From Candidatus Moanibacter sp. (GTDB taxonomy: Bacteria > Verrucomicrobiota > Verrucomicrobiia > Opitutales > UBA2987): 64,000 bases of DNA. A program made the position numbers and the translations under genes. The stretch covers positions 128,001-192,000 of the forward strand of contig CBDCEW010000100.1 in NCBI GenBank assembly GCA_965215885.1, given 5' to 3'. How positions within the stretch are numbered: the first letter of the stretch is position 1; each line of letters opens with the position of its first letter. The notes beneath the pieces were generated by a model. That model was not told the origin of the DNA. It saw only the letters and a program-made list of their open reading frames with translations, and ran no database searches. Of this stretch, positions 29,482-41,887 are shown piece by piece.

Positions 29482-30516
29482 TTAGCCATCGGTTATTGTG
29501 CTATTATTATCGATCGCACGGCAGAATAGAGCCCAGTCGATATTTCCGCCCGATAGAATTAACCCCACTTTCCTTCCCTGCATCTTGTCTTTTTCTTTCA
29601 GGAGGGCAGCGAGGGGACATGAACCCGCACCTTCAGCTATGTTGTGAGTGTCGGTAAAATAGTATCCAATAGCGTCTAGAATTTCCTGCTCATTGAGCGT
29701 CACAATTCGCGAGACCCCTTTTAGAATACATTCGAATGCTTGTTGATTAGGAATACGTACCGCCACTCCATCCGCTAATGTATCAGCAGAGGTAGTTTCT
29801 CTGAGTTGAACATCCTCAAACGAAAGGGCGTAGGCTGGAGCATTTTCTGAAACAACGCCGACAACTTCAGTCTTAAGATTCAAGGCATTTCTGGCGGCGA
29901 TCATACCACATATCCCGGAACCCATACCGATCGGCACATAAACCGTATGCAGATCGGGAACGGTTTTGAGCAACTCAACGCTATAGGTACTAACTCCTTG
30001 AACCAACAGAGGATTAAACGATGGAAACAAATGGTGTCCACGTTCTTCAGCGAGCCTTTGAGCATAGATAAGAGCTTCATTAAAGTCCCGTCCGTGTTCA
30101 ATGAGTTTAGCACCGTAGGCCTGCATGGCTCGGTTTTTCTCGTGACTATTTCCGTGCGGAACCACGACAGTTGCTCGTAGCTTATGCCTGCGTGCGGCAA
30201 GAGCGACGCTTTGGCCATGATTCCCTCGGGTTGCGGCGATGACTCCATGTATATTTTTATTATTCTTAATTAGATTTTCGGTATACCAGACCCCACCTCT
30301 GACCTTAAATGCTCCCGTAGGTAAATGATTCTCATGTTTAACCCACACTTCACATCCGCATCTTTTGTTCAGAAGCGGCCACGAAATCTGAGGAGTTGCA
30401 CTCAGATATTTGTAGATAACCGATGCCGCTGACTCAATGTCAGCTATTGAGAAATCTAGTCCCGGCAAGCCGGGATCGGACTTTATGCCTCTTTCGAGAG
30501 AGTTATCCAGTTTCAT
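29482..30516 (-). CDS. PLP-dependent threonine/serine dehydratase family protein
   Basis: KHENHLPTGAFKVRG, ATRGNHGQS, PIGMGSG and SGGN motifs; the N-terminal ~20 aa come from a repeat. Confidence 0.88.
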   Translation of the reverse strand: MKLDNSLERGIKSDPGLPGLDFSIADIESAASVIYKYLSATPQISWPLLNKRCGCEVWVKHENHLPTGAFKVRGGVWYTENLIKNNKNIHGVIAATRGNHGQSVALAARRHKLRATVVVPHGNSHEKNRAMQAYGAKLIEHGRDFNEALIYAQRLAEERGHHLFPSFNPLLVQGVSTYSVELLKTVPDLHTVYVPIGMGSGICGMIAARNALNLKTEVVGVVSENAPAYALSFEDVQLRETTSADTLADGVAVRIPNQQAFECILKGVSRIVTLNEQEILDAIGYYFTDTHNIAEGAGSCPLAALLKEKDKMQGRKVGLILSGGNIDWALFCRAIDNNSTITDG

Positions 30517-30801
30517 TCCGACAGGCTGCTAGAGACAAGAAAATGAACCTGAGATTTGCGGGAAAGTGAACGAATTGTTGCAGAGCAGGTTCGCTATGGG
30601 CCATTTTGACACGATCAACCCGCGAGCCACAATCTTTCATCATCAGATTCGTATTCGAGGACGGAATAGATATGTCAATATCTCTCAAATCTCAGTTTCA
30701 TTTTCTTCCAAGGAATCTGTCGGTCTCATCTGAGTCGGAGTGTCGATCTGTCACCGTGAAATCTACACCACGGAGAAGCTAGGAATGCTAAGTCCGACAG
30801 A
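30456..30801. repeat. Composite MITE, copy 2; its terminal repeat is interrupted by IS110 (remainder at 32502-32510)
   Basis: Colinear with 10821-11227; AAGTCCGACAGA...GATTCCTAG is split by the IS. Confidence 0.9.
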
Positions 30802-30852
30802 AAACTGAGGTAGTCCGTCAAGGGATTTTTTGAGTTTTTTCTCATGTTGTGT

Positions 30853-32163
30853 TTACAAGGCGTTGGCATTTGCTTGCTGAAGTCTTTTCCACACCGGTGA
30901 ACCGGTGCGTTGGAGCGATTGGAGATACTTTTGCTCATCGTAGCGTTCGCTATTTTGCCAACAGCGAAACAGAATGCGGGTCCACTTGAGAGCGAGGGCA
31001 CGAAGAATGGTTTGGCGGGGTTTGCCCTGTTCTTTTTTGATCTGGTAAAAGGCCTTTGCCCAGGCACAGTTTCGGATCGAATGTTCGGCAAATTCAACGA
31101 AACTTTGCCGCACGAAGGTAGGAGCCGCCCACCGCCAGTTGACCATTCGTTTCGGTTGTCCGGTTCTTTTGTCCTGCCCGCTGTTGATCGTGACCGGAGC
31201 GGATCCATTCCACTGGGTCATGTTCTGGGCCGTTTCGAAGTGCGAACGATCGGTCCCGAACGCGCACAGCAACCGGGGACTCATGACCTCGCCGGCTCCG
31301 GGAATGCCACTGAACACGGCTGCATCGGGATGGCTTCTGAATAGCTCCCTGATACGCTTCTCATACGCTTTGATCTGCGGGCACAGGGTCAAAAGCTGTC
31401 CGGCCAACGTCTGTGCTTTTCTGCTGGATGCTTCAATGATGGCTGCATCTTCGGTCAAGGCTCGTGCGTTACCGATCAATTCGAGACGCTCCTGGATTTT
31501 GGCGTCACTGCGACAGTTGTGCTTATAGAAGAACTTTCGCAAGACACCCTCCGATGCTCTGTGCAGCTTCTTGAGGGTCGGCCAACGCAATATAAAGTGC
31601 AGGCACAGGCCACTGCCTAGATCATCGAACAATTTCAAGACCAAAGGGTTATATTGCTTCAGACAACTGCCCAACTGCTGTTCGAGGCTGGTAGCCTGAT
31701 CGACGAATCCACGGCGGTCCTCGCACAACAGGTTCAGCTCCCGTGTTTGGGCCGTGTCAGGTATGAAACATTTGGTAAAAAGCTCGGGATGTTTGAGGAA
31801 AAACTCCGCGTGTATTTGCGCATCGACCGGGTCGCTCTTGGCCCCTGATGGATACAGCGCCCGGCGATAATCCTTCGCCCTGGCCGCATGCACTGGATAG
31901 ATATCGACAAACTCCAAGCCCATCAGAAAGTTGATCAACCCTCCTCGCTTCTGGTCCACCACCATGGCCATGCGCTTGCCCACGCTGGCATACTTTTCTC
32001 TCATCTCTACGGCAAATTCGTGCAAGCTGACCGCATCCTGCGCCACCTGTCGATGGGTCCCTTTTCCCGTTTCGCTCTCTATGATCCACAGATCGTTTTT
32101 CTGATCCGCCCAATCAATTCCTATCACCACACTATATCGATTTGTTTTTTCCCTTTTCTGCAT
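30853..32163 (-). CDS. IS110 family recombinase/transposase
   Basis: RuvC-like IGIDWA...VDQ...KSDPVDA and Tnp20 domain GIPGAG...APVTINSG...RALALKW. Confidence 0.93.
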   Translation of the reverse strand: MQKREKTNRYSVVIGIDWADQKNDLWIIESETGKGTHRQVAQDAVSLHEFAVEMREKYASVGKRMAMVVDQKRGGLINFLMGLEFVDIYPVHAARAKDYRRALYPSGAKSDPVDAQIHAEFFLKHPELFTKCFIPDTAQTRELNLLCEDRRGFVDQATSLEQQLGSCLKQYNPLVLKLFDDLGSGLCLHFILRWPTLKKLHRASEGVLRKFFYKHNCRSDAKIQERLELIGNARALTEDAAIIEASSRKAQTLAGQLLTLCPQIKAYEKRIRELFRSHPDAAVFSGIPGAGEVMSPRLLCAFGTDRSHFETAQNMTQWNGSAPVTINSGQDKRTGQPKRMVNWRWAAPTFVRQSFVEFAEHSIRNCAWAKAFYQIKKEQGKPRQTILRALALKWTRILFRCWQNSERYDEQKYLQSLQRTGSPVWKRLQQANANAL

Positions 32164-32175
32164 CCCTTTGTTCCT

Positions 32176-33843
32176 TTAGTTTGTCTTTTTGCTTTTTTCA
32201 AAGGCACTGGATGTCCAGGCGAAGTCCTTATAGTTGGATCCTGTTATGAGGATGTAAACTGAGTGTTCGTTTTCGGTCATCCAGGCAGGCCGTCCACTCG
32301 AAATTCTGTCGGAAGTCCTCTTCGGACTGATTCCTAAGTTCGTAGTGGACGGCTGCCTTTGAATATTTTCACCCTTAGCCAAACAAACTCTTTGACCCAT
32401 CGCCAACCACTGATCGGCCAAGTTATTCACAAAGGGGCCTCGCCGAGTTTTTCCTGCGGCTCCACTCGGCCCCTTGGATGAATAACCTGGAGCTACTATA
32501 AGATTCCTAGCGCGATGAACGTGTCCAGCGTCGTTGCGGTCGAGGGTGAAGGTCTCGAACCAGACTGTGCCTTTCGGCCGCGAGACTAGATTGATGAGAA
32601 TCTCTTTTTGCTGAAATCCGCGGATGGCGAAGACAGTGTGTCCGATCTGCAGAGGAGAGGCGGGCCGGGCTCTCGACGCGTTCCGATCGGCAGGTTTTTG
32701 GGGATCCCCGTCGTAGGCGACGACAATTGCCTTTTCCGCATCAAACACCCCGCGGTTTCGCACCCTTGCTTTCAGAGTCTTGCGAGATCTTCGATTCTTG
32801 AAACGGACTGTCGAGGGGAGCAGCTTCACATCGCGGCACAATTGTGAATCCTTGAGAGTTACGGCGCGGCGGGCGTCGAGGATCCCAAAACCGAGATTCG
32901 GTTCCCACCCGTAAGGGTCGTAGACGAGACCGGATACGGGCCGAGTCGTATTGCGGAGAACCTGGCGTAGTTGTTCATTTTCGAGATGTGGAAAACGCGA
33001 CCATACAAGCGCCCCGACTCCGCCCGCAAACCCGGACGCCATGCAGCCTCCAGTGAAATTTATGAAATTCTGATCGCCTCCGTATCCGCGAATCTGATCG
33101 CTGAGGCGTCCCGAGGAGCGTTCTCCGCCCGGCGCCCCGGCTTCGACGTAGTCGCAATCGGGACAGATATCGGCGGGCCAGCCCTTCCGGTTTGTCGAGC
33201 CCACAGTGAAGACAGCATCGAATCCGGCTTGAAAGGTCACGACGCGCCGGCCACGGTTGTCCCCGCTGCTCTTGAAAATGAGGCATCCATGAGCAAAGGC
33301 GTAATCCATCGCCTCCCGTAGCCCGGGATTGTCCCATGGGTAGCTGAAATCCGTCCCCTGGTAGAAGAGGGGGATGCCGTTAGCCCGTTCGCCGCTTATG
33401 TAGCCGTGAGGCGTTACAAGGATCTTTGCGCCGTGGTCTACGGCGTATCGGATACCCCGTTCCCAGCTCTCGGGGTTCCCGTAGCCGACGCGCACCATCA
33501 TGATGGGGCACTCCGGCGCGAGGTGGGCCACTTCGCCGCCCACAAACCCGTGGTGTCCCCGAAAATACTCGCTGCTTTCCTCACGCACGCCCCGGTATTC
33601 AAGGCTGGCGTCGTCATCGACGAAATCCCATCCATGCCGTCTGCTTCGCTTGTTCTTCGGGTCGATCCACAGATGCGGTTCAAGATCGCTGTGGGTCCGG
33701 TAGCCGATATCGATTACAGCTACGATCAGGTTCTTGCTGCCCCGTGTGGTCTCGTGCGCCCTTTGCACCCCCAGTTGCCGCAGCGCCCAACCGTAGAGGG
33801 CAGGACCGCGACGAGGCGAAGTACCTGAGGAGCGAGGACTCAT
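32176..33843 (-). CDS. Subtilase (S8)-like protein with atypical catalytic motifs; C-terminus reads through into IS110
   Basis: VAVIDIG (Asp), GHHGFVGG (His), SSGDN and TGGCMASG (Cys in place of Ser). Host-derived sequence ends near 32510. Confidence 0.75.
   Translation of the reverse strand: MSPRSSGTSPRRGPALYGWALRQLGVQRAHETTRGSKNLIVAVIDIGYRTHSDLEPHLWIDPKNKRSRRHGWDFVDDDASLEYRGVREESSEYFRGHHGFVGGEVAHLAPECPIMMVRVGYGNPESWERGIRYAVDHGAKILVTPHGYISGERANGIPLFYQGTDFSYPWDNPGLREAMDYAFAHGCLIFKSSGDNRGRRVVTFQAGFDAVFTVGSTNRKGWPADICPDCDYVEAGAPGGERSSGRLSDQIRGYGGDQNFINFTGGCMASGFAGGVGALVWSRFPHLENEQLRQVLRNTTRPVSGLVYDPYGWEPNLGFGILDARRAVTLKDSQLCRDVKLLPSTVRFKNRRSRKTLKARVRNRGVFDAEKAIVVAYDGDPQKPADRNASRARPASPLQIGHTVFAIRGFQQKEILINLVSRPKGTVWFETFTLDRNDAGHVHRARNLIVAPGYSSKGPSGAAGKTRRGPFVNNLADQWLAMGQRVCLAKGENIQRQPSTTNLGISPKRTSDRISSGRPAWMTENEHSVYILITGSNYKDFAWTSSAFEKSKKTN
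32200..32490 (-). ncRNA. Predicted IS110 bridge RNA (accessory hairpin, target-binding loop, donor-binding loop)
   Basis: Two stem-internal loop-stem modules whose loop strands match the target and the circle-junction donor (see findings). The ends are approximate. Confidence 0.85.
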
Positions 33844-33890: not shown

Positions 33891-35018
33891 CTACGCGGAA
33901 ACTCTGAAGCGCGAGGCGAGCCACGGTGCGAGGTCCAGCGGGCAATTTCCGGTACGAATCCATTCCGCGAGGTGAGGCCCCAGGGCGACCGAGTATTTAA
34001 ACCCTTTGCCGCTCCACCCACAGTCGATGAAGAGATTTTCCAGCCCCTCGACAAAACCCAACAGGGGCTTCATGTCGGGAGTCTCGTCGTAGCAGGTGGC
34101 GTAACCGCCCTGGAATACCCCCCTGCGCATATTCGGCAGGTGATATCGGATCGATTCAGAACACCGGTCGACCATCCAGTTTGGGCAGGTCGACTCGGTT
34201 GGGTCGGGGTCGACAGGTATCCGCGGTTTACGGTCATCGCAAAGAACCCTGATGTTGGAAGCGTGCCAGGGTACGAAGCCACCGATCCCGTCGACCCATA
34301 CTACCGGCGGCCGTTCGAAGAACCCTGGGGGTCGACGGTAGAAGGACACCCCCACGCGAACGTTTTCAATGGGTAACTGGATGCCCGCCATGGCCGCCAC
34401 TTTGAGGCTCCACGGACCACAGGCGAGGACCACTTTCCCAGGTGAAATCGAACCGGTGGCGGTATCTACGGAGGTAATTTCCCCCTTTTCTACGTGGAAG
34501 CGTTCCGCCGGCGAAAACTCCCTTAATTCCGCGCCGTATTCCCGTGCCGCCCGGGCATAAGAGTGCACCGTCTGAAAGGCATCGACACAACCCGTTCTGG
34601 GAAAGAAAGCCGCCGCTTCGACGCCGTCGGTGTTAAACTCCGGATAGACATCGTGGATCTCTTTTCCCTCTAAAACTCGAACCGTGGACCCGTTCCGTCT
34701 GGCGGCGGCCGCGTACTTCTCTGTGGTGGCCAGATCATTGCGGGCGACGAGCAGGCCATGATTGAAAAAACCGCAACTTCCTCCGACCTCCTCTTCAAAG
34801 TTTTCGTATGCCTCCAAGGCACTGACCGCAAGGCGGCTGATGGTGTCGGTTTCAGCCGCTTGCTGTCCGCACATCGCTCCTGAGAATGCGGTCGTACCCG
34901 AGGCGAGGGCTCTGCGTTCGCAGAGCACGACCTTGCCCTCCTTCCTTCGGGCGAGGTGGTAGGTGATCGTAATACCCACGATCCCTCCTCCGATAACTAA
35001 ATAGTCGGTTGATTCCAT
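33891..35018 (-). CDS. FAD-dependent oxidoreductase (DAO/sarcosine oxidase beta-like)
   Basis: VIGGGIVG, GPWS, YDETPD and GWSGKGFK motifs. Confidence 0.85.
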   Translation of the reverse strand: MESTDYLVIGGGIVGITITYHLARRKEGKVVLCERRALASGTTAFSGAMCGQQAAETDTISRLAVSALEAYENFEEEVGGSCGFFNHGLLVARNDLATTEKYAAAARRNGSTVRVLEGKEIHDVYPEFNTDGVEAAAFFPRTGCVDAFQTVHSYARAAREYGAELREFSPAERFHVEKGEITSVDTATGSISPGKVVLACGPWSLKVAAMAGIQLPIENVRVGVSFYRRPPGFFERPPVVWVDGIGGFVPWHASNIRVLCDDRKPRIPVDPDPTESTCPNWMVDRCSESIRYHLPNMRRGVFQGGYATCYDETPDMKPLLGFVEGLENLFIDCGWSGKGFKYSVALGPHLAEWIRTGNCPLDLAPWLASRFRVSA

Positions 35019-35083: not shown

Positions 35084-36673
35084 TTACTCCTTAAACCAGA
35101 TGGGGCTGCTCCATGCCCGGTGTCCGTCTTCCTGTGTTACCTTCGCCAGATACCATTGAATGTCATCGCTGCCCTCCGAGGTGTCCTTGAACTCGACCTC
35201 CATCGTCGTTCCATTGCCCGGGTGTGAGGCTACAGTTTTCCCTCTCCGGATCAGCTCGATCCGCGCTATGTCGTGCGAGCCCTCCGCGCAAACCTCGAAT
35301 ACCCGCTCGGCCTTCACCGGGAGGATGGTTCCCATCATGCTCCCGTTTGATTCGAATCTGAGCGCGATTCGGGCGCCCGTCGTGCCGAAAACGCGGCGAG
35401 CGAGGATCGCTTCGTGGAGCGCTTCGAGGGAAAGCTCGGGCGCGAGCACGCCGGTCTGACCGGCAGGAAATGGACATCCCGGTTCCGGGTCGGGGTTGCC
35501 GGGCATGGAGTCATGGGTGTCGCTCCCGGACACGATGCCGAGGATATGCCCCTTGTTGAGGAGATCGAAAATCCTCGCTTCCTCCTTCAGCGCTCCCCGC
35601 TGTTTCTGCCAGATCTCCGCGAGAATCTCGCGGTGAAAGTCCAGCGTGTGGAAGTGCCCGCTGACGATTCCATTATACCGCTGGACGGTTTCATAATACT
35701 GGTCGAGGTTCTCGCAATGAATGGTATCATTGTTGAAACGGCGAAGGAACCGGGGATCGAGCGCGGGCGGCCGGTCTTCACAGAATATCGGCGGAACCTG
35801 CTCAGGTTTTACAAAGAAGTGGGCGTTACGGTGGGCGCCGTTGGGGACTGTTCCCGCCTCCACGCCGGTGATCGCGATAAACTTGCCCGGCTCCGTCCAG
35901 TGTGCCGCGGCTCGTTTAACTCCATCCCAGACATTGTCGACACAAACGTTATAACTGAAAAGCATAGCTGCGGCGAAGTCGTAGTGAGCTTCGTCCCGGG
36001 CGTAACGGTAAAAGTCGTCCAGCGGCCGTTGGTTGAATGCCATACCGTGTAAATCATCCCAAAAAATGCCTGGTGTCCGCCGCGTGTTTTCCGGGGATGG
36101 TCGGGGCAGGACTCCCTCCACCGAGATTTCCTGTGTGAAGACGGTTTCGGGGATCGTGTCATCATCGACGCTGCGGTGGAATGCACGGTAGGACTTGTAA
36201 TGGGTGGGTTCAAAACGCCATCCGCCCGGTTCGCTCTCCACCAACCAGAAGCTGAATGAATGTATCGGATGGGTGGGAAGCTCCCAACCGGCGAAATCGG
36301 ACCCGAGCCGGACGACCACCGTTTCGCCGTCCGCCAGTCCCTCTTCAAAGATAATTTCGCAGACATAGAGGAATTCGACTACCTTCGGATATAGATCGAG
36401 CGTTCGCGCCTTGTAAGTCTCGCACCTCACGGCCCTGTTTGCCGACGTCGTGGCCGAAACGTAGTTCGGCTCTAGTTCGTCCGTGCATTGGGGAAATCCC
36501 GCGTGCTGGCGAATATCGCAGCAAAGCCACACCCGCGAATCCGCTGGCAGCTCCCGGTTTGGTTCATATTGAAATTCAAGCGACGCAGTCTCTCTATAGC
36601 GATGCGAGGATTCGCTCAGAAGCAGGAACGATGCCGGCGATTGAATCGGCGTTACTTCTGATTTAATCATCAA
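35084..36673 (-). CDS. PHP/DUF3604-like putative metallohydrolase
   Basis: WDDLHG, SGSDTH..PG, FGTTGARI and AWSSPIW motifs. Confidence 0.6.
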   Translation of the reverse strand: MMIKSEVTPIQSPASFLLLSESSHRYRETASLEFQYEPNRELPADSRVWLCCDIRQHAGFPQCTDELEPNYVSATTSANRAVRCETYKARTLDLYPKVVEFLYVCEIIFEEGLADGETVVVRLGSDFAGWELPTHPIHSFSFWLVESEPGGWRFEPTHYKSYRAFHRSVDDDTIPETVFTQEISVEGVLPRPSPENTRRTPGIFWDDLHGMAFNQRPLDDFYRYARDEAHYDFAAAMLFSYNVCVDNVWDGVKRAAAHWTEPGKFIAITGVEAGTVPNGAHRNAHFFVKPEQVPPIFCEDRPPALDPRFLRRFNNDTIHCENLDQYYETVQRYNGIVSGHFHTLDFHREILAEIWQKQRGALKEEARIFDLLNKGHILGIVSGSDTHDSMPGNPDPEPGCPFPAGQTGVLAPELSLEALHEAILARRVFGTTGARIALRFESNGSMMGTILPVKAERVFEVCAEGSHDIARIELIRRGKTVASHPGNGTTMEVEFKDTSEGSDDIQWYLAKVTQEDGHRAWSSPIWFKE

Positions 36674-37694
36674 TTAATACAGTGATTCCCTTGTCAGCTG
36701 ATTTCTGGGTGAGACAAGCGATGCGATTTGCTCGAATTGAAGCGGCATCGGGAACCAGCGGTGAGGCGGATGCGTCATGCAGGGACTCGAGCCAGTCTTT
36801 AACGACTGACCGGTTGGCGGGAAGCTCAGCCAACGGGAAATCTTCGACCGTGTTTCCCTCTTTCTGCAGGCGGATATACTTTCCCAGACGAAACTCAATC
36901 TGGCCCTCCGTCCCTACCACATCGAGTCGGTAGTCATTGCGGCACCCATCCGGAAGCACCCGGTTATACTGTATGAATGCGGTCCCACCGTTTTCCAGTT
37001 GAAAGAGGGCGCCCCCACTGTCGATCAGCTCGGGCATTTCCGGGCGCGACCTGTTGGCCTGATATGCGGTTACCTGCGTGAGCCGCAGCCCGGTGGCCCA
37101 CTCCACCGCGTCGATGGAATGAATCGCCAGATCGAGGATCGGTCCCCCTGAGAGGCGTTGGTCGAGAAACCACGGCGGCCGCGCGCCCGGTTTCAATTCA
37201 ACCGACATCTTCGCCTGACACTGTATGGGCTCTCCGATCGCGCCCGAGCGGACAAGGTCTCTCACCTTGCGATACTGCGGATTGCCGCGGAGGGTCAGAA
37301 GCATGAGCAATCGCCGCGCATGGGACTGCCCATGGCGCTCGATCTCATCGAGTTCGGCGAGGTTGATGGCGGCGGGTTTATCCGCGATGACGTGACAACC
37401 GCGACGGAAAGCCTGTAAGATCGCGGCCGCTTTTTGATCATTCTCATTCGCCACGACCACGATGTGCGGTTCGCAGGCTTCCAGCATTTCTTCCGCGTCG
37501 GTGTAGATCTCGGTTTGGAATAGTTCCTCAGCCCATCCGATCTGCTCTTCGCGCACGGAGGCTCCATTGATCTCGACCATCTCGCCGCATAGAGAAGTGA
37601 TCTCCTTTATGTGGGTCTCGCCGCCGATAATGGAAACCGTCCATTTTCGGGGATCTGCACCACCCGATGCGGATACCGGATTATTCGACTGCAT
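36663..37694 (-). CDS. Gfo/Idh/MocA family oxidoreductase
   Basis: HVIADKPA and GGPILDLAIHSID motifs. Confidence 0.85.
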   Translation of the reverse strand: MQSNNPVSASGGADPRKWTVSIIGGETHIKEITSLCGEMVEINGASVREEQIGWAEELFQTEIYTDAEEMLEACEPHIVVVANENDQKAAAILQAFRRGCHVIADKPAAINLAELDEIERHGQSHARRLLMLLTLRGNPQYRKVRDLVRSGAIGEPIQCQAKMSVELKPGARPPWFLDQRLSGGPILDLAIHSIDAVEWATGLRLTQVTAYQANRSRPEMPELIDSGGALFQLENGGTAFIQYNRVLPDGCRNDYRLDVVGTEGQIEFRLGKYIRLQKEGNTVEDFPLAELPANRSVVKDWLESLHDASASPLVPDAASIRANRIACLTQKSADKGITVLIDD

Positions 37695-37751
37695 ATACCC
37701 CTATAGCGTTCACAACAGAGGACATATACCTTTTCGAACAGGCTCTAAATA

Positions 37752-39668
37752 GACCTTATCCGAAAAGCTACTGATTGGCCGCAAAGAGGCGCAAAAGGCG
37801 CAAGAAAAACTTGAGAAAAATCATTTTTTGGCTTGATAAAAAGTGTCGCAACATGCTAGTGTTTAACAACTTAAGATTAAGAAAGGAGTTAAACATGCCA
37901 ACATGTGCGACAGAGGAGAACAAAAGCGATAAGACGCCCCTTAGCAACCTCATTCTGCCGGTTCCAGACACGGATTTCCGTGATTTTCTGGATGAAGTTG
38001 AAGAATTGGCCGGGTTCGCGGCGCAAATCATCGAGGCGATCGAGAAGGATCTGGACGCCCATGCGCGTGAGAAGAAGAAACTTCGATTGGAAGATCGCAG
38101 GTTCTTTGAAGGGCGCACAGCGGAGCTGCCGGAGCTGGACATCGAGGAGGAGAATATTCTGGCTGCTGAATTGAATCTTGGGGCAGGCCGGCCGCGGATG
38201 CCGGCTTATGCGGTATACGTGTTCGTGATGCTTCGAGGGTTTCTGGGTTCGTTGACCACGAAACCGGCACGGCGGTTTGTGCGCGAGTCGATGAGCTTGT
38301 ACGGATTTTTGCAGAGCGGGGGACTGAGAATGCCGGCGGTGACGACGATTCTGGAGAACGTGAACCTGGTCAGCCATACGACCCGCGAGTTGATCTTTGA
38401 TAAACAGATTGGGTTTATCCTCCAGGAGCAATGGGACGATTTCGGGAAGCTGACGATCGACAGCACCTCGGTGAAAGCAAACAGCTGCTGGCCCACCGAT
38501 GGGAAGATTCTGAGCGGTCTTTTGATGCGGGCCAATCGTTTGGGTCAGAAGTTGCATGTCTTCGGGCTGGAGGATTTTCGCAAGGGATGGGTTGGGCGTT
38601 GGCTGGAGGAAATGGACAAGCTGGAGTTTCAGATTTGTCTGGCCGCGGGCAAACCGAAGTCGAAGGGCAAGCTGAAGAAACACTACCGGCGGTTGCTCAA
38701 GCGGGGCCGCAAGGCGGCCGACTCACTAACGGGGGAACTGAGCCATCTTGAAGAGGGCCTGTCGATGGATTCACTGCCTCCCACTCGCCGGGAGCTTCTG
38801 GAGCGGGCATTGAGCCAGATCAGGGGCGATATTGCCGACGCCAAGCGGGTTGTTGAGTATGCTCATGATCGGGTGTTTCACGAAAAGAAGCTACCGTCCA
38901 CACAGAAGGTCCTGAGCCTCTCGGACGGATCGGCGGCCTACATCAAGAAGGGCAGCCGCAATCCAGTGATCGGGTACAAGCCACAACTGGTTCGCAGCGA
39001 AAACGGTTTTGTCACCAGCCTGATCGTACCGCAAGGCAACGCGGCAGACTCCATTGAGCTGGCGCCGGCCATCGGCGATTCGATCAAGCGCACCGGTGTC
39101 ATTGCTGAACTGGTCAGCACCGATGACGGATATGCTTCGGCGAAGGGACGCAAGGAGGTGCTGAGCATGGGGGTAAAGCAGATCAGTATCAGTGGGGCGA
39201 AGGGCAAGAAGTTGACCACCCCCGAGGACTGGGAGAGCGAGGCGTATCGCGAGGCACGCCGCGATCGCTCCGCAGTGGAGTCGCTGATGTTCACGATTAA
39301 AGATGGATTTGCCTTTGGCGAACTCGGCCGCCGCGGCATCGATGCGGTAGGCGATGAACTGCTCGAGAAGGTTCTGGCCTACAACTTCTGCCGCATCATA
39401 CTGATGAAGAAACGCCGAGGGGAGGAACTGGAACAGGCAGCCTGAATCTGACCGCTTTGAAGCTCAGAGAAAAAAGCACCACGGGATGAGTATGCCTCCA
39501 GACAGCGGCAAATATACGTATTGTGCAGCAAGCCACGCCGATGGCCGCTCAATACCTGCTCATCGGCAGCGCCGGCAGCCTAAAACCCGAAACCTGCCAG
39601 CCATAGGCTGGTCCGCCCGTGGCGGAGAACCTTAAACCGCCCGCTCGAAAGGCTTTTCGAATGGGGTC
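37752..39668 (+). mobile_element. IS5/IS1182-like (IS4 superfamily) insertion sequence, copy 1
   Basis: IRs GACCTTATCCGAAAAGC / GCTTTTCGAATGGGGTC; TAAATA duplicated on both sides. Confidence 0.92.
37855..39445 (+). CDS. DDE transposase
   Basis: TIDSTSVKAN, STDDGYAS and RSAVESL motifs; the start is uncertain (37855 or 37894). Confidence 0.9.
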
Positions 39669-39684
39669 TAAATAGGTTACCCTA

Positions 39685-41887
39685 TTACCACCGGGAGGAA
39701 ACCGTAAATTTGACGCGCCGTCTTTCAACAAGAAAGTTGTTTGTTGCGCTGAACATTTCGCCCCATAGGGTCTCGTCAGTCAAATTGGCGACATTGACCT
39801 GGAACTTGTAGCGGCCCTTCGTGTAGCTGGCAAAGATATCGAAATCCCAGGTGCTGGGCTGGAATACAAGAGTGCCGTCCGGTGCACGGGCACGGTTTGA
39901 GGGGGATGTGCCCTGAAATTTACCGCCGCCACCGAAGGTGAATCCTTGCATTGAACCTTCCTCAAATGTGTATTTGGCAAATACACTGAATGTCTCCTGA
40001 GGAGCGCTGGGCGGCAGGCTGCCGTCCTGATTAACGATGTCTCCATTATAGTAATTGGCTATGGCAGAGAATCCTCTGTTCGCATAAATCAGAGACATAT
40101 CGAAACCCGAACCGACATTGTTCTGGTCCTGAACGTCAAACCCGAAGTTGTCCGGATCCTTGCGTTTCAGACCTGTAATGTTCAGACTGTAGTAGGAAAT
40201 CGTGCCCGAAAAGCCATTAAATAAATCAAGTTTAACACCACCTTCGGTGCTTTCGGCGCGCGTGGGACCGAATAGATTGCCCGCAAAATCCGCGCCGGAT
40301 GCCGGCCGGAACGATTCGTTGAATCCGGCGAAAAAAGACAGGTTGGTAAACTCACTGAATGGCTTGAAGACGACGCCCCAGCGCCCTGTCCATAAGGCGG
40401 AAGTGCCACCTGGAGAGTTTCTTTGGGGGTTACTCGGATCGTAGAAAGCTGTGACCGGGTCAATGCCGCCGGAAGCCGGATCTGCTCCCTGCCAACGCAT
40501 AAACCGCGAGGTGTGTGTGTAATTATAGCGGACACCGCCTGTGATAGCGAACCGTCCATCCCAGAATGACAGGCTTTCCTGTGCGTAAATGCCGGTAAAA
40601 GCGTTAGCTTGGGATTGAAAGCGGAAGAACCGCCAGAAATCCTCAAACACCGCGCCGGGCTCCTGCTCGGGATAAGTGGGCGCTTTAAAATCGAAATCAG
40701 CATTGCTTAATGGTAAAACGAACAAGAAATCCTGACTGGTTTGATTGTATTCTCCACCTATGCTGGTTCGTGACTGTATGTTGTCACCCAAATCAAATTT
40801 ATAGACGATATCGCCCTGCACAGCTTCAAGGGTATTCCAATGGGTCTGGGTTTGATGCGACCGAGTCACATTCCAGGTAAGACCGCCTACAGGGGAGTCC
40901 TCTAAATTGGACGTGTTGCCCACGGCACGTTGCGTGGGGCGCTTGCTTCTCTGTACGAGAAAAGCGCTCCGAAAGGCAAGGTTGTCCGTTATTGCGGATG
41001 TAAAGTTGGCGTATATGTCATGGCTGATTATGGAACGATGGGGGCGCGAATTTGGCCCGTTCCATGTAACGTCTTCAATAATCTTTACCTGGGGATACAC
41101 ATCCGGGTCGAGGAACTGTGATGTGTCACCAAATTTGCGATCGAGATAGCGGTAACGGACGACGAGATTAGAGCGATCACCTATATCAAAGGAAAATGCG
41201 GGAGAAAGGACGATCTGATCATCCTTTGCAATATCCCCGAAACGGGTTCTGTCAGCATCCCGCAGTTCCCCGATGAAGCGGTACTGAATTCCCTTCCTTT
41301 CACCCAGTGGGCCGCTGACATCGAACGCGCCGCCGTACCAATTGTCGGTTCCGATCTCGAATTTAATCTGGCCTTGAAACTCGCGTGAAGGCGTCTTCAA
41401 AACCCGGTTTACCGTGCCGCCGTTTTCCGATGCACCACCGTAGAGGATAGAAGCAGGCCCTTTGATGATTTCCAAGCGCTCGACCATAATATCCGGAGTG
41501 ATCGTCTTGTTAAAACTCTCAAATCCGTCCACGGAGGTAAATGTCGTGCGAAAACCCCTGATATAAAAATCATCCGTCCAGACTGACTTGTTTGACGTCC
41601 CTGCCGAGGCGTATTGTACCGCAGTGGCAGAATTAACCGGAGAAAGATCGTCAAGAAAATCGCGCGTGGCGATGTTGATATGCTGCGGCACATCGGTAAG
41701 CAACTGTGCGGAACGCAGGCCGGATACTGTCTGCGAAGAAACCCATCCCTTGACGGCGTCTTCGGACACTTCGAATTCGGACAAGGTTACGATGTTCTCT
41801 TCGGAAGGCTCCTCTGCCTCCTGTGCTTGTGAGGATAATTCCGCTCGCCAATAAGCAAGGTAGAATGCCAAATGATAACATTTTCAT
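39685..41887 (-). CDS. TonB-dependent receptor (signal peptide apparently out of frame)
   Basis: VTLSEFEV, plug motifs IRGF and ERLEIIKGPASILYG, and a C-terminal aromatic residue. A signal-like MKMLSFGILPCLLASG from 41887 is in a different frame. Confidence 0.85.

Follow-up and report, generated by a model that had tools for sequence, protein, structure and literature searches.

Here we report that a minus-strand gene in a 64,000-nucleotide stretch of Candidatus Moanibacter sp. DNA (contig CBDCEW010000100.1, positions 128,001 to 192,000; hereafter the window) encodes a subtilisin-fold protein with cysteine at the position of the catalytic serine. As judged from its sequences, the family to which the protein belongs (clade A) is natural and widespread, and has neither the serine nucleophile of peptidase family S8 nor the N-terminal propeptide that is usual, though not universal, in that family. 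The cysteine is fixed in the family under purifying selection and is neither an error nor a sign of decay, because all 120 aligned homologues carry it and the catalytic Asp, the catalytic His and the oxyanion-hole Asn are kept. Based on these observations, we suggest that the family is likely to consist not of proteases but of cysteine hydrolases that act in amino-sugar breakdown.

The window protein matches PF00082 (Peptidase_S8) with an E value of 8.5e-17 and 61.8 bits, against a cut-off of 21.8, and begins at an ATG at 33843 that is also the start used by its 73%-identical homologue P0002. Read on the minus strand, it contains the motifs VAVID45IG, GH97HGFVGG, SSGDN196 and TGGC267MASGFAGG, with Asp45, His97 and Asn196 in the order and columns canonical for S8 and Cys267, within TGGCMASGFAGG, at the position of Ser221 of subtilisin. 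The initial annotation, made from the sequence letters alone, had described this arrangement, and we found each of its motifs, including a TGC codon that is read as the reverse complement since the gene lies on the minus strand. The SSGDN oxyanion motif it listed is present in the window copy and peculiar to that copy; the commonest form in the family is GTADN (66/120). Contigs of sequencing runs X1, X2 and X3, from two studies, span the TGC codon with no differing letter, and none shows the AGC or TCC that would have spoken for an error; run X1 may be the source sample of the window DNA.

An AlphaFold model of residues 1-445 has a mean predicted local distance difference test score (pLDDT) of 94.1 and a predicted template modelling score of 0.93. 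It aligns with subtilisins, thermitase and furin in VIA-align at Z 34-36, with a root-mean-square deviation (rmsd) of 1.8-2.3 Å for the subtilisins and thermitase, and with subtilases in Foldseek at an E value of about 1e-18. In the model Asp45 stands at the end of a strand, helix 92-108 contains His97, and Cys267 is found at the start of helix 266-283, the same secondary-structure placing that the triad residues have in subtilisin. The C-terminal part forms an all-beta domain (pLDDT 92) with a weak resemblance to immunoglobulin and fibronectin type III (Ig/FnIII) sandwiches (Foldseek E 2e-4 or worse, template modelling score about 0.5). No Pfam family was found for this domain in 20 homologues scanned, and CARDB occurs in 15% and 86% of the members of two related ESM Atlas clusters.

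The homologue search returned 446 matches among 8000 candidates, and the best 120 of the 446, the window protein included, were aligned (45-73% identity to the window protein). Cys267 occurs in all 120, within an invariant G-G-C-M where S8 peptidases have G-T-S-M, so that no close homologue has serine; Asp45 is found in 119, His97 and the adjacent His98 in 118 each, and Asn196 in 120. These four catalytic positions are among the most conserved columns of the alignment, unlike the degenerate and variable sites of a pseudoprotease. Both cysteine codons are in use (TGC 68, TGT 15) among the 83 locus open reading frames that cover the site, a count that includes redundant loci, and ten further frames do not reach it. 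Locus scans placed the family in Chloroflexota, Planctomycetota, Verrucomicrobiota, Armatimonadota, Kiritimatiellota, Lentisphaerota, Gemmatimonadota, Spirochaetota, Bacillota and one Bathyarchaeota bin; one of the three scan patterns contained the cysteine, and the scanned loci are to that extent not fully unbiased for the residue. Of 60 relatives of the host, G003 alone carries it. The median ratio of nonsynonymous to synonymous substitution rates is 0.065 across 56 close pairs, which come mostly from one Chloroflexota group and are not independent. The idea that the cysteine arose by missequencing, or by random mutation of a serine protease gene in decay, draws on TGC being one base from a serine codon and on damage to the window copy, and its probability is practically nil: the residue is present in 120/120 homologues, is written with two codons, spans many phyla and recurs in the contigs of three runs. 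Where databases name members of the family at all, they call them S8 serine peptidase or hypothetical protein.

The cysteine is accompanied by changes elsewhere in the fold. Subtilisin binds its peptide substrate along the strand Ser125-Leu126-Gly127; in clade A these columns hold Pro and His in all 120 proteins and Gly in 113. Gly65 has become His (118/120), and Phe mostly takes the place of His67 and His226 and Asp that of Gly154. The oxyanion Asn196 is followed by the conserved Arg197, Arg199 and Arg200. Position 225, proline in subtilisin, is Gly in 105, Ala in 7, Ser in 7 and Glu in 1, with no Pro among the 120. In thiol-subtilisin the change P225A restored activity by relieving crowding, and Gly, Ser, Asn, Asp and Cys also served well there, according to the available part of PMC7921005 (this and the other cited papers are represented here by excerpts). 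In a subtiligase screen position 225 tolerated only Ala or Gly, and changes at 124-126 improved ligation (PMC9126251).

The second change removes the loop of calcium site A (residues 75-83). The distance from the catalytic His to the Pro of an Ala-Pro pair is 13 residues in all 119 parsed clade A proteins (one fragment was left unparsed), as in the loop-deleted variant 1gns, compared with 22-23 residues in 51 of 59 parsed canonical matches (210 examined; three of the 59 have 13) and 23-24 in 14/14 parsed proteins from clade B and the deeper members described below. The clade A profile aligns without gaps to 1gns and to 7am3, both with the calcium loop deleted. Nor could a propeptide be accommodated: the catalytic Asp has no more than 83 residues ahead of it in 119/119 parsed clade A proteins, against a median of 161 in 200 canonical matches. 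The initial annotation, in which the protein had neither signal nor propeptide and was cytoplasmic, fits the window copy, where the Asp is residue 45; it does not extend to the whole family, since 12/120 members have a signal-like N-terminus directly ahead of the domain. Folding is much faster once residues 75-83 are deleted, and one engineered variant needs no prodomain to fold (excerpts of PMC4865297). We infer that loss of the loop and loss of the propeptide are linked in clade A, and one observation cuts against this: clade B, introduced next, keeps the loop and is likewise without a propeptide.

Clade A is part of a wider cysteine lineage. Members of clade B (L049, L120-L122, P0121-P0125, P0253 and P0260) have a mature domain that begins straight after a signal peptide. 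Their catalytic His sits in HGNHV, columns 125-127 read NHG or NHF, and the nucleophile motif is mostly GGCMAxPHV. Two of them (L121:3240-6761 and L122:594-4217) are secreted proteins of about 1200 residues with extra C-terminal domains that bear no Pfam name, and in L121 a C5-epimerase-like gene follows. A profile search of 1.84 billion representatives found deeper members of about 450 residues, without signal or propeptide and with GGC, GQC or HCQ at the nucleophile. Five of these (P0263, P0268, P0276, P0277 and P0309) combine the cysteine with Glu in place of the catalytic Asp, giving Glu-His-Cys; P0258 is ambiguous, with Glu for Asp, a shifted G-C-G motif and no oxyanion Asn. One member of the lineage, P0251, has G-Q-S at the nucleophile, possibly a reversion to serine or its retention, and because of this protein the position can be said to alternate between nucleophiles. 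Four S8 proteins outside the lineage (P0136, P0146, P0155 and P0181) carry GGTQAAPHV, with what appears to be threonine at the same position.

In an IQ-TREE tree (fast search) of 109 dereplicated domains, 42 from the cysteine lineage and 67 canonical, built on 269 columns after removal of the motif columns, the lineage forms one branch with a Shimodaira-Hasegawa-like approximate likelihood ratio (SH-aLRT) support of 96.8; clades A and B each receive 100 and their union 94.3. The rows include three fragments and three domains shortened by trimming, and support is weak for the branching of the deeper members. The tree suggests a single switch to cysteine, followed in clade A by loss of Pro225 and of the calcium loop, and the earlier proposal of a diverged subfamily, as opposed to a lone mutation, holds up both here and in the alignment. 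Chloroflexota genomes have, in addition, a second paralogue (L040-L044) with GGCMANGF, in which His98, Phe100 and Pro145 are not kept and which adjoins a DgaE-like pyridoxal phosphate (PLP)-dependent lyase, solute-binding proteins and an M24 enzyme.

Gene neighbourhoods are consistent with a metabolic role. In the window the order is Gfo/Idh/MocA dehydrogenase, DUF3604 hydrolase, flavin adenine dinucleotide (FAD)-dependent enzyme and Cys subtilase (Table 1), all on the minus strand, which bears out the upstream genes named in the initial annotation. We kept 27 of 75 clade A loci (at least 6 kb, below 75% identity) and 33 of 66 canonical S8 loci. One or more of five neighbour families are present at 22/27 clade A loci and at 1/33 canonical loci, a count that describes and does not test the association, the families having been chosen from the loci counted. 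The five are Gfo (15 of the 27), a CE4-type deacetylase (13), a URO-D-like protein (13), a DegT sugar aminotransferase (12) and DUF3604 (8). AraC regulators, solute-binding proteins, sugar-acid dehydratases, HpcH aldolases and the DgaE-like lyase are found as well, together with isochorismatase-, nitrilase-, M24- and M14-type hydrolases, the M24 and M14-like peptidase folds at 2/27 loci each after dereplication. The deacetylase belongs to a CE4/NodB-like subfamily with a TYDEG motif (L003:7303-8391 and relatives) that usually adjoins the Cys subtilase; it was not found in the host genome at E 1e-6. In PDB sequence searches the deacetylase-like and DUF3604 proteins had no match, and DegT, Gfo and the FAD enzyme had distant matches only, none close enough to name a substrate. 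Taken together, the neighbours point to the breakdown of an amino sugar, an aminocyclitol or a sugar-amine conjugate.

Table 1. Features of the window discussed in the text (window coordinates).
Feature	Position	Strand	Remarks
Cys-nucleophile subtilase gene, native part	32509..33843	minus	445 codons; last few native codons and stop replaced by IS110
Asp45, at Asp32 of subtilisin (catalytic Asp position)	33709..33711	minus	119/120, one gap; canonical Asp column
His97 (catalytic His64 position) and His98 (replaces Gly65)	33550..33555	minus	each 118/120; alignment to 1gns, 7am3
Asn196 (oxyanion-hole Asn155 position), then Arg197, Arg199, Arg200	33244..33258	minus	Asn 120, Arg197 113, Arg199 120, Arg200 118 of 120
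Cys267 (TGC) at Ser221 nucleophile position	33043..33045	minus	120/120; on engineered Cys221 of 1gns and 7am3
Gly271 at Pro225 position (subtiligase-type change)	33031..33033	minus	Gly 105, Ala 7, Ser 7, Glu 1 of 120
His97 to Pro110, 13 residues; calcium site A loop (75-83) absent	33514..33555	minus	119/119 parsed clade A
Pro145-His146-Gly147, replacing Ser125-Leu126-Gly127 strand	33403..33411	minus	Pro, His 120/120; Gly 113; column match
C-terminal beta-sandwich (Ig/FnIII, CARDB-like) domain	32509..32850	minus	invariant Gln399, His402, Gly409; 3 residues missing after 32643
IS110-family element at gene 3' end	30789..32508	minus	PF01548/PF02371; right end about 32508
FAD-dependent oxidoreductase, sarcosine-oxidase-like	33891..35018	minus	PF01266; best PDB match 1y56_B, E 2e-35; 76% identical gene in operon of relative G003
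DUF3604/CehA-McbA-like (PHP-type) metallohydrolase	35084..36673	minus	PF12228; NF038032 70.7 bits, below cut-off 80; 8/27 loci
Gfo/Idh/MocA dehydrogenase	36663..37694	minus	recurrent neighbour, 15/27 loci
Multi-copy insertion sequence (DDE_Tnp_1), upstream of four genes	37750..39670	plus	repeat matches across genome

Cys267 is very probably the active nucleophile in the family. We put at roughly 0.55 the probability that these proteins are Cys-His-Asp hydrolases that belong to a catabolic cluster and cleave a small amide or ester, the substrate probably being an amino sugar with an acyl group or a related sugar-amine; the small-molecule hydrolase or acyltransferase of the initial annotation agrees with the gene context and remains a proposal. 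From the observed fold, residues and their conservation, Gly225, the losses of calcium loop and propeptide, the binding strand and the neighbours, we infer every catalytic step. His97, oriented by Asp45, would activate Cys267, which would attack the carbonyl while Asn196 holds the oxyanion; a thioester acyl-enzyme would form, and water would release the acid. As in subtiligase, the bulkier thiol would find space next to Gly271. Without the calcium loop the protein may fold with no propeptide, and self-cleavage would then be unnecessary. Peptide substrates are held by pairing with a beta-strand, which Pro145-His146 would disrupt; His98, His146 and the Arg197/199/200 cluster may bind a substrate that is small and probably anionic. 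Once released, the amino sugar would pass to the aminotransferase and the dehydrogenase.

Several observations weigh against the hydrolase reading, or against parts of it. DegT and Gfo enzymes can also serve biosynthesis, and 5/27 clade A loci have none of the five neighbour families. The 12 members with signal-like N-termini look secreted. Clade B and most deeper members combine the cysteine with Pro225 and the calcium loop, and because they keep both, the changes at these two sites are not required for a cysteine nucleophile. The non-independence of the pairs behind the substitution ratio and the choice of neighbour families from the loci counted have been given above, and the host's own copy has an IS110 tail, a three-residue deletion and sibling differences that, 5/5, change the amino acid. 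Finally, engineered thiol-subtilisin hydrolyses poorly, and its thioester reacts more readily with amines than with water (excerpts of PMC7921005 and PMC6642262), a preference that argues for transfer over hydrolysis.

Acyl transfer is the substance of the alternative that survives best, in which the family would be a natural ligase or transacylase and the Cys267 thioester would be discharged by an amine, either an amino sugar supplied by the adjacent dehydrogenase and aminotransferase or a peptide N-terminus. Gfo and DegT, both recurrent neighbours, make up a standard amino-sugar route. Clade A also has the three changes of peptiligase, namely Cys221, a small residue 225 and no calcium loop, and thioesters in the subtilisin fold favour amines (available part of PMC7921005). 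The other neighbours look catabolic (transport, AraC, dehydratases, aldolases, the sarcosine-oxidase-like enzyme), no recurring acyl-activating enzyme or carrier protein appears among the annotated neighbour clusters, and the peptide-binding strand is altered. We think it unlikely that clade A is a natural, propeptide-free peptiligase that reached Cys221, Gly225 and loop loss independently of the engineers and transfers acyl groups to amino sugars or peptides. If this is true, clade A would provide the first thiol-subtilisin that serves in nature as a ligase or transacylase, and the clades of the wider lineage would preserve steps of the switch from serine to cysteine.

Less likely still is a cysteine peptidase of narrow specificity that has kept the subtilisin fold and cuts short or modified peptides. 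The full triad and the oxyanion Asn are retained, M24 and M14-like peptidase-fold genes adjoin the gene at the few loci noted above, and secreted members exist, clade B among them. No clade has a propeptide, however, the invariant Pro-His stands in for Ser125-Leu126, Asp usually occupies the Gly154 position, and sugar enzymes are the neighbours seen most often.

It is also very improbable that no acyl-enzyme forms, with Cys267, His97, His98 and His146 instead binding a metal or ligand in a metalloenzyme, sensor or scaffold. Two extra His, nearly invariant in clade A, neighbour active-site positions in the sequence; clade B lacks His98, though, and in the deeper cysteine members both His98 and His146 are largely missing. 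To our knowledge, known pseudo-subtilases lose triad residues rather than fix them. The near inactivity of engineered thiol-subtilisin on ordinary substrates, as given in the excerpt of PMC6642262, would favour a non-catalytic role, against which stand the retained catalytic Asp and oxyanion Asn and the serine of P0251 at the same site.

The window copy itself looks damaged. The initial annotation ended the gene at 32510, where there is no stop and where we find instead the end of an IS110-family insertion sequence (IS); the frame continues into this element to a stop at 32176-32178, giving 555 residues with a 110-residue read-through tail. In homologues the protein stops a median of 7 residues beyond position 444; here the element has replaced the last few codons and the stop. 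A 9-bp in-frame deletion after 32643 (32643-32644), between short direct repeats, removes three residues of the conserved motif L-Q-x-R-Q-I-G-H; the longer allele, of the family type and with the 9 bp, is seen in contigs of X2, X3 and X4. These two lesions, like the Pro225 change and the calcium-loop loss, had no place in the initial annotation. At three further sites, where its 12 closest homologues have the family residue, the copy differs (G192S, A194G and A300T). Among sibling contigs all five single-base differences (5/5) change the amino acid, two of them at conserved sites, and at a depth of 3.7-5.3 they may be errors. An IS-free allele was looked for in four runs and no joint across IS110 was seen; the X2-X4 contigs reach 24-27 bases into the IS end, under the 31-base bridging rule. 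In G003 the operon reads Gfo, DUF3604, FAD enzyme, DegT, Cys subtilase, M14-like hydrolase and enolase-like gene; in the window DegT is missing between the FAD gene and the Cys subtilase, and the M14-like gene was not found in the host genome (90% complete) with the M14-like query used. Decay of this copy is a serious possibility that we consider somewhat less probable than not, and it leaves the claim about the family unaffected.

Mobile elements lie on both sides of the four genes. IS110 has nine other near-full copies in the genome, and the one in the window adjoins a cluster of short palindromic-type repeats (30450-30800) of a kind found widely in the genome; several other IS110 copies also begin beside such a repeat, which suggests a target preference. 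The DDE_Tnp_1 element, with well over 50 near-identical copies in the assembly, a strong IS expansion, sits between a TonB-dependent receptor gene (39685-41871) and the four-gene operon. A promoter and terminator scan gave nothing above shuffled sequence (1 versus 3.1 and 5 versus 7.9), and the RNA run X12 covered the IS only and not the subtilase gene, so that it is uninformative on expression. Apparent N-terminal fusions of 900-980 residues in L004, L096 and L097 were rejected as open frames in GC-rich DNA upstream of the normal start.

Since 1966 Ser221Cys subtilisin has been the textbook demonstration that serine and cysteine are not freely interchangeable as nucleophiles, and its rescue as a peptide ligase has occupied engineers for decades. 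A natural cysteine family with two changes like those of the engineers offers ready-made proteins for learning what makes the thiol work, and its graded clades (in Pro225, the calcium loop, Asp or Glu, and one serine member) make the order of steps testable. These proteins are possible scaffolds for propeptide-free, calcium-independent ligases or acyltransferases. The label S8 serine peptidase would be wrong on the nucleophile and probably on function, and the family marks a putative sugar-amine pathway in many uncultured phyla.

The closest natural relatives are the S8A subtilisins and thermitase (MEROPS S8, clan SB; PF00082; 1thm, and fervidolysin 1r6v), which share the fold (Z about 35, rmsd about 2 Å) and the order and position of Asp, His and oxyanion Asn at about 20-27% identity. 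Clade A differs in having Cys for Ser, Gly for Thr220 and Pro225, Phe for His67 and His226 and Pro-His for Ser125-Leu126; it has no propeptide and no loop 75-83, and it adds a conserved C-terminal beta-sandwich and a metabolic operon context. The sedolisins (S53) belong to the same clan and fold with changed catalytic residues, and the SSGD of the window copy presumably resembles their oxyanion motif; a sedolisin-type reading is ruled out, as the family has GTADN with an invariant Asn and lacks the S53 triad. That triad is Glu-Asp-Ser (excerpt of PMC9549277), so sedolisins keep a serine nucleophile whereas clade A is Asp-His-Cys. The same excerpt describes ASP of Aeromonas sobria as a subtilase likewise without an N-terminal propeptide, but ASP is reportedly a kexin-like serine protease that uses an external chaperone, and we identified no recurring chaperone-like neighbour at Cys-subtilase loci.

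A literature search over titles and abstract openings, with few subscription journals, found no natural subtilase with a cysteine nucleophile; Siezen et al. in 2007 reportedly described subtilase subfamilies with differing catalytic residues, which could bear on novelty. Natural switches from serine to cysteine within one fold are known from dienelactone hydrolase (alpha/beta-hydrolase) and the picornain-type proteases (chymotrypsin fold), to which the nucleophile change in clade A may be likened, although the folds differ. The nearest likeness is to engineered thiol-subtilisin, to subtiligase (S221C/P225A) and to peptiligase or omniligase, in which the calcium loop is deleted as well (1gns, 7am3-7am8). 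Clade A resembles them in its Cys221, in the small residue 225 and in lacking loop 75-83. When the family profile is compared with PDB sequences, 1gns and 7am3 rank first, and GGCM falls on their Cys221. By analogy, the family may work as the engineered thiol-subtilisins do. Those ligases are laboratory variants of one Bacillus enzyme and keep its peptide-binding cleft, with the Ser125-Leu126-Gly127 strand intact; clade A, known here from sequences, is natural, has a rebuilt cleft with Pro-His-Gly in that strand, and carries an extra domain.

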